Source of the DNA: an uncultured Methanosarcinales archaeon
GTDB lineage: Archaea > Nanobdellota > Nanobdellia > Woesearchaeales > GW2011-AR4
Direction: 5' to 3'
DNA: 64,000 nucleotides
Assembly: GCA_964650285.1 (NCBI GenBank)
Contig: CAZYSP010000002.1
Location: 9,827-73,826 of the forward strand
Part shown: positions 5,764-59,660 of the stretch, piece after piece
How the letters are laid out: every line of letters starts with the position of its first letter
Numbering within the stretch: the first letter of the stretch is position 1
Program-made: the position numbers and the translations under genes
The notes under the pieces: model-generated
Told to the model about the DNA's origin: nothing
Seen by the model: the letters and a program-made list of their open reading frames with translations, nothing else
Database searches by the model: none

Positions 5764-6705
5764 ATGTATGAAATTGTAAGGGAAGGGAACGCAGTTATAA
5801 AGATAAAGAAAGCTAGTAAGGTGTCCAAGGAAATGGATGTTTTCTATAATCCTGTTATGGGGATTAATAGAAGCATTTCGGTTTTATTGTTAAATTCTAT
5901 AAGGAAGAAAAATATGCAGATTGCATTGCCTCTAGCAGGATCCGGCATCAGAGGGATAAGATTTTTGAAAGAGTTAAAGAAGAATAAAATCAAGAGTATA
6001 AGTTTTAATGATTATAACATAAAAGCAGTAAATTCAATTAAAAATAATTTGAATCTCAATAAAATCAACAAATTTACAATGCTTGGAAATCAAAGATTTC
6101 CGGCACCAACTTCGTTGGTAATAAAAAATATAGTAAATAACTCCAATAATAACAAAAAAGCAATAAAAAAATTCGACAATAATTCAATAAACAATAAAAA
6201 AATAATAATTTTCAATGAAGATGCCAACTTGTTCTTATTAAATTCTAGTGGTTTTGATTATATTGATATTGACCCATTTGGAACTTCTAATTCTTATGTT
6301 GATGCTGCAATTAAGAGAATTTCCAGGAATGGTATCTTGGCTGTGACAAATACAGATACAGCAGCTTTGACAGGAACTTATCCAAAAGCATGTATGAGGA
6401 AATACTGGAGCACGCCTAAAAGGGATTACATGATGCATGAGACTGGATTGAGGATATTAATCAGGAAGATACAGTTAGTGGGGATGCAGTATGAAAAGGC
6501 TTTAGTACCAATATTTTCGTATTTTAAGGAGCATTATTTCAGGATTTTCTTTCAGTGTGTTAAAGGAAAGAAGTTATGTGATGAAATAGCTGCAAAGCAT
6601 GGAATGTTTAATGGTGCTGGGCCTTTGTGGTTAGGAAGTTTGTGGGATAGTAAGTTAGTCAATAAAATGTATAGTACATTATTAAAGAGCCCCAATAAAA
6701 AATGA
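5764..6705 (+). CDS. trm1: tRNA (guanine26-N2)-dimethyltransferase Trm1, N-terminal 313 codons (reading frame interrupted)
   Basis: Start YEIVREGNAVIKIKK...VFYNPVMGINRSISV and later GPLWLGSLWD match Trm1; ends prematurely at TGA 6703-6705 next to an A6 run. Confidence 0.8.
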   Translation: MYEIVREGNAVIKIKKASKVSKEMDVFYNPVMGINRSISVLLLNSIRKKNMQIALPLAGSGIRGIRFLKELKKNKIKSISFNDYNIKAVNSIKNNLNLNKINKFTMLGNQRFPAPTSLVIKNIVNNSNNNKKAIKKFDNNSINNKKIIIFNEDANLFLLNSSGFDYIDIDPFGTSNSYVDAAIKRISRNGILAVTNTDTAALTGTYPKACMRKYWSTPKRDYMMHETGLRILIRKIQLVGMQYEKALVPIFSYFKEHYFRIFFQCVKGKKLCDEIAAKHGMFNGAGPLWLGSLWDSKLVNKMYSTLLKSPNKK

Positions 6706-7024
6706 TGCAGTGAAAATAAGTACAATAATAAATAAAAATAATCGAACAATGAAAAATAAAACAATGATAAACACCAATAAAAATAATAATGAACTATTGA
6801 AATTCTTAAAAATTATTAAAGAGGAATCTAAAATAAATGCTGTTGGGTTTTATGATATACACCAGATAGCGAAAAATAAAAAATCAAGAACAATAGTGAG
6901 AAAAGAAGAGTTTATTAGAAAAATAAGGAAAAAAAGATTTAAGGCTTCTAGTACTCATTTCTCAGGTACCGGAGTTAGGTCCAATATTTCCTATGATAAA
7001 TTATTGATGTTGTTAAAAGAATAG
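6686..7024 (+). CDS. trm1: Trm1 C-terminal segment in the +1 frame (continuation of the interrupted trm1)
   Basis: C-terminal FKASSTHFSGTGVRSN resembles the conserved Trm1 C-terminus (..aSrTHFdptgiKTdap..); frame open from 6686, overlapping the upstream stop. Confidence 0.6.
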   Translation, partial: RAPIKNDAVKISTIINKNNRTMKNKTMINTNKNNNELLKFLKIIKEESKINAVGFYDIHQIAKNKKSRTIVRKEEFIRKIRKKRFKASSTHFSGTGVRSNISYDKLLMLLKE

Positions 7025-7884: not shown

Positions 7885-7950
7885 ACACTTCAAGCCTCCC
7901 CATTAGTGCAGCACAACATTATAAGCCCACCCCAACAGAAGATCAAATTA
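7885..7950. repeat. partial copy (3' half) of the GC-rich intergenic repeat family also seen at 13638, 15306 and 15974
   Basis: shares AACACTT..AGTGCAG..ACAACATT and the C-rich GCCCACCCC block with copies B and C. Confidence 0.3.
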
Positions 7951-13610: not shown

Positions 13611-13637
13611 TTTATTTTTTAATTGATTTAATGGTTT

Positions 13638-13750
13638 TTGCCAGAGCGGACCGTAGTCAAAATGGGTATTTTTTAAAAAACAAAAAATGCAAGCATTTTA
13701 ATTTCAGATTTATGGTTATTCTGCCCACCCCCATCCCCTAAATTGGCAAA
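13638..13750. repeat. GC-rich intergenic repeat element, copy A (between ribH start and phosphoesterase end)
   Basis: TTGCCAGAGCGG...C-rich GCCCACCCCCATCCCC...TTGGCAA; ends are mutually complementary. Confidence 0.5.
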
Positions 13751-13764
13751 AACCTTTTTTATTT

Positions 13765-14310
13765 TTATAATTTAATTATCTTTCCCTTTATTTCGTCATT
13801 TATTGTTAATATTCCAAAGGTGTTTATTGTCGCAAAGACTGTGTCTGTTGGACTGCCGGGATTAAACATCAATGTGTTGTCTATTTTTCCATTAAATGGT
13901 CGGTGGGAGTGGCCAAATATTATGCAGTCAGGCTTTTCTTCAAAATAATTTAAAATGCGTTCAGCAAGACCTTCTGGTGGACCAGAGCCGTGTGTTACTG
14001 CAATCTTAAATTCTTTGTCATTGTTTTTTATATTGATAATGGCTTTTTCCGGCATTTTCTCAGCAACGTCATCAGAGTCCATATTTCCATGCACACCAAC
14101 AAAGTTATTATTATTTTCCAGGCTGTTGGCAACTTCTATTGTTTGAAAATCTCCGGCATGGATTATTAAATCAGCATCCTTAAAGTGCCCTATAAGCTGC
14201 TCTGGTATTTTTGCTGCCCTTACAGGAATATGCGTGTCTGATAGGACAACTATTTTTTTTATATTTTCCAGATTTTTTACTTCTGTTTTAGAGCTTAACA
14301 GGACCTTCAT
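13765..14310 (-). CDS. metallophosphoesterase (MJ0936/YfcE-like)
   Basis: VVLSDTHIP, HAGDF, GNMD, GHSHRP motifs; start trimmed to the internal Met to avoid overlap with ribC. Confidence 0.7.
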   Translation of the reverse strand: MKVLLSSKTEVKNLENIKKIVVLSDTHIPVRAAKIPEQLIGHFKDADLIIHAGDFQTIEVANSLENNNNFVGVHGNMDSDDVAEKMPEKAIINIKNNDKEFKIAVTHGSGPPEGLAERILNYFEEKPDCIIFGHSHRPFNGKIDNTLMFNPGSPTDTVFATINTFGILTINDEIKGKIIKL

Positions 14311-14752
14311 CCTCTTTTCCTTGTCTCCTGCCAGTACCCGCATATTTTGTTAAGATTGTTTTGCCTTTTAATAGCTCAAGAGCATTTAAGGCATGTTTTT
14401 CTGAACGGTTTTTTGCTATTTCATAAAGTTCCTTATCATCTTTTGCCTCATCCATGTGAACAAAGACTTCCAGAATATGCTTCTTTACTTTCAATTGCGC
14501 ATTTTGAATTCCTGTTGAGGCTTCATGAGCGCACTGCCTGTCTATTGGAGCAGCTCCTGCCATTCCAAATGCCATAACAATATCGCAATTATGATCTTCA
14601 AAAAGTCTTAAGCATGCCACTAGCAAATCCTTAAAGCCCGGCACTGTATATCTTTCTATTTCACACTCTGAATTTTTTTTAATTATATCTATTGCAAAGC
14701 CTGCCATGTTCACTCTTGCAAATGTTGTATCAGCAATGCCTATTTTTGTCAT
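14288..14752 (-). CDS. ribC: riboflavin synthase, archaeal type (MJ1184 family)
   Basis: MTKIGIADTTFARVNMA...IVMAFGMAG...CAHEASTG...EVFVHMDEAKDDKEL matches the archaeal riboflavin synthase family. Confidence 0.85.
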   Translation of the reverse strand: MTKIGIADTTFARVNMAGFAIDIIKKNSECEIERYTVPGFKDLLVACLRLFEDHNCDIVMAFGMAGAAPIDRQCAHEASTGIQNAQLKVKKHILEVFVHMDEAKDDKELYEIAKNRSEKHALNALELLKGKTILTKYAGTGRRQGKEDEGPVKL

Positions 14753-14877
14753 TTTATATCATTATTTTGTTCAATTTTTTAATATTTTTATCTCATTAAT
14801 TTATCCAATTTTTTATTAATTTTAATTCAATAATTTTATTATTGATAATTTTTAATTATATTGGATATTTTTTATTG

Positions 14878-15246
14878 TTATTGGAGCATTAATTTTATTT
14901 TATCCCCTTCTTTAAGGTTTAATTTTGATTTTAAATGTATTGGTGCAATAAACTCTATAATATCCTTATGCTTGTTTATGTCTGGTATTATTATAAAGCC
15001 ATTTGTATTATTTATTTTTGCTTTATAACAATTTACTCCATAAAATGTTCTATTATCTTTTTCATAGCCGTTAATTCTTATTGGACTGGTTTTTTTTAAT
15101 GGATCTATTTGTGTTTCGTTGACTTTTAAATTTAATGTTCCTGGATATGCCTCAAAACCAAGCTTTTCCTTGATTTCCTTTTTGTAGTGCTCCATGGACA
15201 TGAAAAAAGAGCCTTCTCCTAGTCCAGAAGTTACGATGCCTTCCAA
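14878..15246 (-). CDS. ribK: CTP-dependent riboflavin kinase, archaeal type (MJ0056 family)
   Basis: GIVTSGLGEGSFFMSMEHYK...EAYPGTLNLK...FYGVNCY...IAPIHLKSKLNL; the longer ORF (to 15330, TTG) would translate the upstream repeat, so an internal TTG at 15246 is the likely start. Confidence 0.7.
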   Translation of the reverse strand: MEGIVTSGLGEGSFFMSMEHYKKEIKEKLGFEAYPGTLNLKVNETQIDPLKKTSPIRINGYEKDNRTFYGVNCYKAKINNTNGFIIIPDINKHKDIIEFIAPIHLKSKLNLKEGDKIKLMLQ

Positions 15247-15305
15247 AATTATTGCACCCCCATGCTTAGAAGAGTTATTTTGCTTATAAAGTTTTGTGTG
15301 AATAA

Positions 15306-15511
15306 GGGCTGTGCCAGAGCGGTGTTGCAAGCGGCATTCGACAAAGTCGAATGCAATTCACGGCAAAATGCTGCATCTTGATTTTATTTTTTAAAACACT
15401 TAGTGCAGATTCACAGCATTTTAATTGATGTCATTTGATGCTATTTCCCACTCACCGCCCGTGAATTGCGAGCGGCTCGGAGTCGCTCGTCGCGTTCACT
15501 AGACACAGCCC
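15306..15511. repeat. GC-rich intergenic repeat element, copy B (longest copy, perfect 8-bp terminal inverted repeat GGGCTGTG/CACAGCCC)
   Basis: shares CCAGAGCGG, CAAAATGCTGCATCTTGATT (20/20 with copy C), AAAACACTT, ACAGCATTTT and C-rich blocks; carries extra internal hairpins. Confidence 0.55.
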
Positions 15512-15529
15512 TATATTTTTATGTAGAAA

Positions 15530-15961
15530 TCATCTAAACAAATCCTTAAAGCTTATATTGAGTTTTTTTCCTGTTTTGATGTCTTTTGCAAAGACCTTTT
15601 TTTGTATGCTGATTACCTTTATTTTGTCTCCTTTGTATTCTATTATGTCTCCTTTTTTGAATTTTGGGATGCGGAAAAGCACATTTACCCTATAAAGGTC
15701 TTTGCTGGTTACCCTGCTTCTGGTGTGCAGCTTTCTGCTCACTATTAACTGGCCAGAAAAATGGTGCTGGAGTTTGTTTCCAAGGCTTCTTAGGAGTTTT
15801 TGCGGAGCTACGTAAATATCTATTCCGTTTGTTACCTTGCTTATCTTAGCTATATTTGCATTTTCATTTTTTTCTATTTCCTTCACTGCAAATTCAACTA
15901 CTTCATCGCCTATATTTCTTAACTGCAATGTTCCTTCAAAATAGTCCTTATTGTGCATCAT
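15530..15961 (-). CDS. hypothetical protein, possibly NMD3-family related
   Basis: weak resemblance only; basic C-terminal region. Confidence 0.3.
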   Translation of the reverse strand: MMHNKDYFEGTLQLRNIGDEVVEFAVKEIEKNENANIAKISKVTNGIDIYVAPQKLLRSLGNKLQHHFSGQLIVSRKLHTRSRVTSKDLYRVNVLFRIPKFKKGDIIEYKGDKIKVISIQKKVFAKDIKTGKKLNISFKDLFR

Positions 15962-15973
15962 TGTAAAATTGGT

Positions 15974-16110
15974 CTATGCCAGAGCGGAATTGAAGCCAAA
16001 ATGCTGCATCTTGATTCTTTCCGTAAAAACACTTGGTAAAGGTACACAGCATTTTTATTAATGTCTTTGCATGCTTTTGCCCGCCCGCCTCCCCTAGAAA
16101 GGCATAGCCC
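15974..16110. repeat. GC-rich intergenic repeat element, copy C
   Basis: CTATGCCAGAGCGG...CAAAATGCTGCATCTTGATT...AAAAACACTTGGT...ACACAGCATTTT...GCCCGCCCGCCTCCCC...GGCATAG; termini complementary. Confidence 0.55.
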
Positions 16111-16173
16111 CTTTTTATATATATTCAACAAAAACAAAAGCTTTTTATGCTTTCTTGTTGTTTTTTGGGGTTT

Positions 16174-39958: not shown

Positions 39959-40053
39959 CGAGAAATTAAAAATGCTCAAAAATCAAAGATTTTTGGCACC
40001 ACGTAAAGTGGTTTCTCATACCTCAAATTTTAAAAAATTTAAGGTGATATACA

Positions 40054-40678: not shown

Positions 40679-40732
40679 GGATATAATTCTTAGTAATGTT
40701 TTTAAATTGTATATTAGTTCTTCTATTATCCT

Positions 40733-40890
40733 GCGGGGATGCCGGAGTGGCCAATCTCTGAAAAGAGGGCTAGACGGGATAGACTCAAGGCATTTGAGTG
40801 TCGAGTGTTGCTTTGCAATGCGATGAAAGAATCATTTGTAAGTCATCTATTGGCTTAGTGCCTACGCAGGTTCGAACCCTGCTCCCCGCA
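40733..40890 (+). tRNA. tRNA-Leu(CAA) with two introns (about 20 nt in the D-loop, about 55 nt at canonical 37/38)
   Basis: Acceptor GCGGGGA/UCCCCGC, T-arm GCAGG-UUCGAAC-CCUGC, anticodon stem AUAGA/UCUAU with loop CUCAAG (anticodon CAA), long variable arm UGGCUUAGUGCCUAC, D-stem CCG/CGG; 158 nt in total, so about 75 nt of intron. Confidence 0.7.
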
Positions 40891-40936
40891 TTTCTTATTA
40901 ACAAGATTTTTAAACATCGTGTTTTCTTATTAGGTA

Positions 40937-58887: not shown

Positions 58888-59660
58888 TTGAAAGAAAATT
58901 TATAGCACAGAAAATAAAAGAATACCAGATACAGGAATACATAAGCAGTAATCTGAAAAACGTTGGCCACAGCCATACGAAAATGGTAAAGACACCTCTT
59001 GGGGAAAAAATTGTCATTTATGCTTCTAGACCTGGGCTTATAGTCGGAAGAAAGGGCCAGAATATAAAGGAGTTAACAAAGACTTTAAAGAAAAGGTTTG
59101 GGCTTGAAAATCCCCAAATAGAAATAAGTGAAGTTGCAGACATTAATTTGGATGCAAACATAGTTGCTGAGAGAATTACTGATTCGCTGGAAAGATTTGG
59201 AGCTCAAAAGTTTAAAGCTATAGGCCATAAGGTAATGGGAAGTGTCATGGCAGCAGGAGCCTTAGGTGTTGAAATAATAGTAAGCGGTAAGATACCCAGC
59301 AGCAGAGCAAAGTCCTGGAGATTTTACTCTGGTTACCTTAAGAAATGTGGGGATATATCGATAGTTGGTGTTGACAAAGCACATGCACAAGCAAGGCTAA
59401 AAACAGGTGTTGTTGGGGTTAAAGTAAGTATAATGCCGCCTGGAACAATATTGCCAGATAAAGTTGAGCTTATTAAAGAAAAGGAAGAGAAAATCGAAAA
59501 AGTTGAAGAGGAAGATAGTGATGAGAAAAAAGAAACAAAACCCCAAGTCAAGAAAAAAGTGAAAGTGAATGCTCAGAAATCAAAGATTTCTGGCACCAAC
59601 TCCATTGGAAAAGAGACTGGAGATAAAAAATCTGATGAAGAAAATAAAAACAAAAAATGA
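58884..59660 (+). CDS. rps3: 30S ribosomal protein S3
   Basis: KH-domain block GLIVGRKGQNIKELT, operon order. Confidence 0.9.
   Translation: MIERKFIAQKIKEYQIQEYISSNLKNVGHSHTKMVKTPLGEKIVIYASRPGLIVGRKGQNIKELTKTLKKRFGLENPQIEISEVADINLDANIVAERITDSLERFGAQKFKAIGHKVMGSVMAAGALGVEIIVSGKIPSSRAKSWRFYSGYLKKCGDISIVGVDKAHAQARLKTGVVGVKVSIMPPGTILPDKVELIKEKEEKIEKVEEEDSDEKKETKPQVKKKVKVNAQKSKISGTNSIGKETGDKKSDEENKNKK

Follow-up and report, generated by a model that had tools for sequence, protein, structure and literature searches.

What are the three related, GC-rich repeats that sit between the minus-strand genes of an archaeal riboflavin locus: RNA genes, regulatory leaders of the genes beside them, or copies of a mobile element? 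They lie in a 64,000-nt stretch of contig CAZYSP010000002.1 (the window), whose host was placed among the marine Woesearchaeota by its riboflavin-kinase homologs. We conclude that the repeats, here called copies A, B and C, are very probably members of a family of MITEs (non-coding miniature transposable elements with inverted repeats) that has spread through marine Woesearchaeota genomes. A sequence-only reading of the window had preferred a structured non-coding RNA to a MITE; this preference gave way once relatives were compared, since they show dozens of copies, terminal inverted repeats (TIRs), 9-bp target duplications, and filled as well as empty sites.

The three copies are homologous, all face the + strand and have ordered blocks in common, an earlier observation that was borne out by a motif pattern, exact repeats and model scores. 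The motif CCAGAGCGG has exactly three occurrences, one heading each copy; the 19-mer AAAATGCTGCATCTTGATT is identical in copies B and C; and the pattern AGCATTTT-N24-CCCRCYCNCNNCCC matches exactly A, B and C (0 matches expected by chance), with a fixed spacer of 23–24 nt between AGCATTTT and a C-rich block. A covariance model (R1), trained on copies from other genomes only, plus copy C, recovered all three in a search of the window at E values of 1e-15 to 1e-29. The closing arms differ among the copies, yet when read and paired within each copy they are complementary, as the sequence-only reading had it, over stems of 9–10 bp. Several of its details needed correction. A supposed partial copy at 7885–7950 gave no R1 match even at E ≤ 10 and was excluded from the family; the GC contrast, put at ~50% against ~30%, is smaller when measured (A 38%, B 47%, C 46%; the window as a whole 33.6%); and the C-rich block ascribed to every copy is found in A and C and is degenerate in B.

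Dispersal and insertion sites in related genomes

The family is dispersed and numerous in relatives. A motif scan of a set with one genome per species returned 54 loci, which, except for two chance matches, came from metagenome-assembled genomes (MAGs) labelled as Woesearchaeota or Nanoarchaeota; 42 of them were contigs of a single MAG, Woesearchaeota CSMAG_1410. Among the related loci examined, a covariance model found 69 copies, of which ~50 are on the 42 contigs of CSMAG_1410. Many of these matches stand at contig ends, as expected because repeats break assemblies, and the family accounts for gaps between contigs in the assembly of at least one MAG. Several other MAGs contain 2–4 copies each. 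The intergenic location, which had been put forward for checking, was found for 54 of 57 copies, which lie outside crude open reading frame (ORF) calls. The window locus itself recurs near-unchanged in many marine metagenomes, deep-ocean samples such as JGI 3300022227 and those of Tara among them, and a metagenome scan requiring only the C-rich block yielded 29 loci, all with complete small copies of 103–184 nt. Scans of IMG/VR for viral carriage returned no match.

The copies are bounded by inverted repeats, flanked by 9-bp target duplications, and present or absent at orthologous sites. For the first two of at least three kinds of outer arm (described below), exact direct repeats of 8–11 nt lie just outside the arms at constant offsets in at least 12 copies (for example ACTATAATA, AAGACTTAA, TGAAATAAA and TCTCTGATG), and the third kind is flanked by 5-bp repeats (GTATG, TTCTT, AACAA, TAGAA). 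The duplication remnants on either side of copy B agree at 7 of 9 positions in the window; its orthologs have TTTTGTGTA/TTTTGTGTA (9/9) in the related locus L011 and TTTTGTGTA/TTTTGTATA (8/9) in L048, a contig of CSMAG_1410.

We then aligned the flanks of CSMAG_1410 insertions to the orthologous window sequence (Table 1). On contig L024, a family copy at ~1237–1451 lies between two occurrences of AATTCTTAG, which is a single 9-mer in the window. A second copy on that contig (model match at 1688–1835) follows a tRNA-like gene and lies between two occurrences of TTTTTTATT, the orthologous window position holding the unoccupied site TTTCTTATT. Copies at the L042 and L067 sites are likewise missing from the orthologous window positions. 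At the C site both the window and L048 have an element, and L011 has an empty site with a spacer of 54 bp. We regard this comparison of filled with empty sites as the decisive evidence for a transposon.

Synteny of the rib locus is well preserved among relatives, whereas the elements are not. In L011, where the riboflavin kinase shows 77% identity, a single copy occupies the B site; relatives at 64–70% identity have no family copy in the rib locus; and in CSMAG_1410 the B site and the C site are each occupied (L048:678–860 and L048:1311–1493). Orthologous copies vary in the presence of a 34-nt hairpin module and in their arm alleles, which suggests replacement or gene conversion among family members, not slow change in place. 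The family marks both recent and ancient transposition in genomes that are usually considered streamlined.

Table 1. Positions in the window of the three family copies, their parts and the associated target sites.
Feature	Position	Strand	Detail
Copy A	13633–13754	+	Short form, 122 nt; R1 86 bits, E 8e-17
Copy A terminal arms	13633–13642 / 13745–13754		GGTTTTTGCC / GGCAAAAACC; 10/10 complementary
Copy A internal hairpin base	13659–13664 with 13694–13699		AAAATG with CATTTT
Copy A C-rich block	13723–13738		
Copy B	15301–15516	+	Long form; R1 79.8 bits, E 2e-15
Copy B left duplication remnant	15292–15300		TTTTGTGTG
Copy B right duplication remnant	15517–15525		TTTTATGTA
Copy B terminal arms	15305–15313 / 15504–15512		(A)GGGCTGTG/CACAGCCC(T)
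Copy B extra hairpin 1	15334–15354		GCATTCGAC-AAA-GTCGAATGC
Copy B internal hairpin	15365–15373 with 15414–15422		
Copy B C-rich block	15446–15461		Degenerate (TCCCACTCACCGCCCG)
Copy B extra hairpin 2	15461–15499		
Copy C	15971–16111	+	Standard form, ~141 nt; R1 143.5 bits, E 2e-29
Copy C terminal arms	15971–15980 / 16101–16110		GGTCTATGCC / GGCATAGCCC; 9/10 complementary
Copy C internal hairpin	15998–16006 with 16047–16055		
Copy C C-rich block	16079–16094		
Unoccupied target site	40685–40693		AATTCTTAG; single 9-mer, orthologous to an L024 insertion
Unoccupied target site	40891–40899		TTTCTTATT; directly 3' of a tRNA-like gene, orthologous to the L024 TTTTTTATT insertion

Inverted arms, internal hairpins and the conserved core

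What the sequence-only reading described as a closing stem is an inner inverted repeat of 10 bp (consensus GGGCTGTGCC ... GGCACAGCCC), which pairs at 8–10 of 10 positions in all 57 copies. It encloses a conserved 5' block (AGAGCGG-ACTTTAG), a hairpin (AAAATG.../...CATTTT) whose tip varies, 23 nt of spacer and the C-rich block CCCRCCCRCCTCCCCTAAA; the conserved core reads CCAGAGCGG ... CCCRCCCRCCTCCCC. In many copies the inner stem is prolonged outward into longer inverted arms, which in CSMAG_1410 reach ~35–45 nt and are of at least three kinds (GGCTTCATCCAAAAA..., GGCTGCGTTCAAAA... and TGTAAAGTAAA...); an autonomous partner would be expected to have one of these or (A)ATAAGGGCTGTGCC at its ends. 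The copy-specific complementary ends are the inverted terminal repeats of a MITE. Copies are 103–237 nt long and fall into size classes of ~103, 128, 149, 183, 203 and 237 nt, produced by modules that may be present or missing, namely the internal hairpin's tip, a hairpin of 34 nt that follows AGAGCGG and an insert of 55 nt. On inspection, the short reading frames of both strands change from one spacer variant to another; the element was judged to be non-coding and a small protein was rejected. Within the C-rich block only single bases between the C runs vary, an apparent invariance that is partly built in, as both collection scans demanded the block; it is nevertheless kept in 6 of 7 full-length copies detected by the model alone. 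The GGCTGCGTTCAAAA arm type also bears a different cargo (L020:2578–2800), and for the third arm type an arm search found one isolated arm, a truncated copy, and no core-less version.

Complementarity of the arms and hairpins is maintained. RNAalifold supported two helices only, the terminal stem and the AAAATG/CATTTT hairpin, and it is for these terminal arms and this internal hairpin that the earlier claim of complementarity kept through two-sided changes was upheld. Across the alignment of 69 copies, 96% of cells pair and 9 of 18 pairs have changed on both sides; none of 500 shuffles reached the observed pairing and slid controls also fell far short, although the shuffle controls overstate the support, the copies being related by descent or transposition and the alignment fitted to the model. 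The optional hairpin occurs in compensated variants as well (GCATGCAAC/GTTGCATGC, GCATGTGAC/TCACATGC, GCATATGAC/GTCATATGC, GCATGCGGC/GCCGCATGC, GCATTCGAC/GTCGAATGC and GCATTTGAC/GTCAAATGC). Mismatches in paired columns (18 pairs, 68 distinct sequences) comprise 20 G·U and 17 A·C, so neither RNA strand is favoured, which matches neutral decay of DNA repeats; a + strand RNA, at which a few wobbles in A and B had hinted, failed across the 68 sequences. We do not read the covariation as an RNA signature because the terminal stem is the inverted repeat of a transposon, because of the relatedness and model-fitting just described, and because the mismatches show no strand preference. For annotation, complementary changes in a closing stem are insufficient for an RNA call when that stem doubles as a TIR, and a GC-rich intergenic island closed by a stem in an AT-rich DPANN genome can be the relic of a transposon instead of an RNA gene.

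Several observations nonetheless weigh against a MITE. Conservation is higher in the internal core than in the outer arms, whereas MITEs usually show the opposite, and one core is found within unrelated outer arms, two types of which have 9-bp and the third 5-bp duplications. The internal hairpins change compensatorily, for which end recognition by a transposase alone offers no explanation. Copy B has been retained at one site, the NMD3–ribK spacer, in three genomes (the window, L011 and L048), and in the window flanks, as read, no target duplication could be recognised beside copy A or copy C. Finally, ~640 kb of related loci contained no autonomous element with the same ends, probes made from the arms matched small elements only, and the 32 matches in metagenomes, from a scan by motif, were all small, a negative result to be read with the fact that draft assemblies rarely assemble multi-copy insertion sequence (IS) elements.

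There is a small but real chance that the core (100 nt, made up of the closing stem, the AGAGCGG block, the AAAATG/CATTTT hairpin and the invariant CCCRCCCRCCTCCCC block) is a functional module selected for itself, captured repeatedly by several unrelated transposon 'jackets' and spread through DPANN genomes as a mobile element with a regulatory or RNA function. One candidate for such a module is a small structured RNA whose single-stranded, C-rich segment resembles an anti-Shine-Dalgarno sequence; another is a DNA motif with a quadruplex-forming G-rich complement. The occurrence of one core inside different arms would be noteworthy only if expression data showed the core in use.

We consider it improbable that transposon ends have dispersed a core that functions as a structured RNA gene or module, the window copies acting as RNA and the transposon features being real but secondary. 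An example would be a small RNA in which an unpaired, C-rich CCUCCCC stretch binds sequences that are G-rich or similar to a Shine-Dalgarno. Covariation of the closing stem and the internal hairpin would fit such an RNA, as would the at least six compensated variants of the optional hairpin, but an excess of G·U over A·C mismatches is lacking, and the shuffle support is overstated for the reasons given above. The C-rich block is kept also in model-only copies and one core sits within different outer arms, but conservation of the motifs was partly imposed by the scan patterns. A T run follows the 3' arm in each of A, B and C, but on inspection the AT-rich flanks have TATA-like strings everywhere and none at a fixed distance from the element, and for A and C the fold z-scores lie at only -1.6 to -2.0 (copy B, -4.5). 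The retention of copy B in three genomes is set against the lack of the element in the more distant relatives examined. No Rfam family was matched at E ≤ 10 by the window copies or at E ≤ 1 by diverse family copies, in line with the earlier statement that no known RNA family fits.

If the repeats are MITEs, a transposase supplied in trans would bind both ends, make a 9-bp staggered cut and insert the element. A lineage would stay mobile only with matched ends, so that the arms of subfamilies would come to differ in a complementary manner; hairpins in the DNA may also need to match for continued movement, and single copies would then decay neutrally. The three window copies are probably immobile relics, and if they affect ribH, ribK and the NMD3-like gene, they probably do so incidentally.

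Neighbouring genes and the regulatory alternative

The neighbouring genes, all on the minus strand, encode lumazine synthase, a metallophosphoesterase, a second DMRL-synthase-fold protein, CTP-dependent riboflavin kinase and an NMD3-domain protein; Pfam assignments for the first and the last two agree with the identities proposed earlier (ribH, ribK and NMD3-like). That the copies are cis-regulatory leaders, such as riboswitches, or promoter modules for the minus-strand riboflavin and NMD3-like genes is extremely improbable, and we regard this explanation as largely refuted. The copies do lie upstream of minus-strand starts, two of them those of rib genes, at actual distances of ~23 (A), 58 (B) and 10 nt (C), not the 30–60 bp first stated. 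However, orthologous rib genes are without a copy in L011 (A site), and the rib locus holds no family copies in L013 and L015–L018, while copies elsewhere adjoin unrelated genes (tRNA genes, a translation GTPase, membrane proteins). Nor is orientation biased: in co-directional gene contexts the element is antisense in 14 cases and sense in 9. An apparent 31:13 bias, with gene starts more frequent on the element's 5' side, was due to divergent gene pairs, which are uninformative on orientation because they score the same whichever way the element faces.

Copy C lies 10 nt from the ATG of the NMD3-like gene and parts it from what is the promoter region in the empty-site relative L011, an arrangement that a regulatory role would accommodate. 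In effect, the family has placed 140 bp between a conserved gene and its former promoter, and the gene would now have to be transcribed through or out of copy C. For ribK, the most likely start is the TTG at 15246 (122 aa, with the Pfam domain matched from residue 5), and a TATA-like TTTATAAG and a GGGGGTG were read between copy B and this codon. At that place the gene seems to possess a TATA box and a Shine-Dalgarno sequence of its own, which would leave copy B outside the ribK mRNA. The promoter-proximal role suggested in the sequence-only reading is not supported, in view of this apparent promoter between B and ribK, the 14:9 orientation count and the missing copies at the rib genes of more distant relatives. 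The riboflavin kinase ORF can be drawn as 14878–15330 (-), and the TTG start at 15330 (150 aa), used by some pipelines, would enter copy B.

Other identities were rejected. An FMN or other riboswitch finds no place, the FMN riboswitch model being unmatched and copies missing at orthologous rib genes. For 5S, signal recognition particle and RNase P RNAs, C/D and H/ACA guide RNAs and small ribozymes, box motifs were missing and Rfam was negative. As tRNA genes with odd introns the repeats fail too, as no T-arm or D-arm could be placed on either strand and both ARAGORN and Rfam were negative; true intron-bearing tRNAs nearby look quite unlike them. A tRNA-like gene of the window, at 40733–40890 (+), has acceptor arms GCGGGGA.../...TCCCCGC, the T-arm GCAGGTTCGAACCCTGC and long non-canonical insertions, and reaches only 14.6 bits with the Rfam tRNA model. 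ARAGORN called no tRNA in the whole 64-kb window, and tRNA genes of this genome are probably under-called by standard tools.

Known elements, a rearrangement and other repeats

Sulfolobus SM elements are archaeal examples of MITEs. Like the MITEs of prokaryotes generally, the Woesearchaeota family is small, non-coding and mostly intergenic, with TIRs, target duplications, many dispersed copies and filled/empty polymorphism; prokaryotic MITEs depend on a transposase supplied in trans, as this family presumably does. It departs from them in a core more conserved than the outer repeats, in at least three unrelated types of outer arm, in having both 9-bp and 5-bp duplications, and in that no parent IS was found; ISL3-type elements, with ends that start with GGCTCTT, may be a lead. 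Prokaryotic MITEs have been reviewed and surveyed (PMC10969869, PMC11602168), and the census lists a Woesearchaea genome among the archaea of highest MITE density (PMC11602168). The family seems to be undescribed, as we found no description of it in the literature that we examined.

ERIC and BOX elements are modular, stem-loop inverted-repeat elements that lie near gene starts or ends and can be co-transcribed. The Woesearchaeota family resembles them and the Correia elements of Neisseria (PMC5039591 for context), the latter in their inverted-repeat stem-loops, length variants made by optional modules and location near gene starts or ends. It has no sequence relationship to Correia, ERIC or BOX elements, and its hosts belong to another domain (DPANN archaea). 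The Correia duplication is TA, whereas that of the present family is 9 bp; Correia-type elements can be co-transcribed with their neighbours. Palindrome-associated elements derived from IS200/IS605 and TnpB guide RNAs are similarly short, hairpin-rich and non-autonomous, with asymmetric ends, and a TnpB-type gene is present in a related genome (L015/L016). Members of the IS200/IS605 family insert without target duplications and have no terminal inverted repeats. A palindromic element of that origin was ruled out, since both features are present here.

The family also coincides with a strain-level rearrangement at copy B. In the strain variants L009 and L010 (L010:3040–3400) synteny breaks exactly at the 5' edge of the copy. 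Everything 5' of B gives way to a block that encodes a response regulator and a membrane protein and has two tRNA-like genes with introns, one called by Rfam at 43 bits and none by ARAGORN. In a distant MAG, FT1_083 (L070:4880–5240), the same block, ~80% identical, adjoins a family copy. The L009/L010 breakpoint is consistent with recombination between dispersed repeat copies.

A second small repeat of ~44 nt (AATGCTYRGAAATCAAAGATTTCYGGCACCA...) occurs in the window at 6078–6121, 39971–40014 and 59568–59611. It forms two hairpins with stems that are compensatory between copies (GGAAATC/GATTTCC, AAAAATC/GATTTTT and AGAAATC/GATTTCT), and on the opposite strand it is similar to a portion of the cargo in L020:2578–2800, the small CSMAG_1410 element with GGCTGCGTTCAAAA arms. 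One copy lies within a Trm1-like ORF; the Trm1-type tRNA methyltransferase of the window is split into two adjacent + strand ORFs (5764–6705 and 6710–7024), both matching PF02005, and the split is common to several independent assemblies. At L013:315–1576, directly upstream of ribK, the spacer that holds copy B in the window is occupied by an IS with a weak DDE_Tnp_1 match and perfect 16-bp inverted ends (AGTATCTCCGAATATA), which are unrelated to those of the MITE family.

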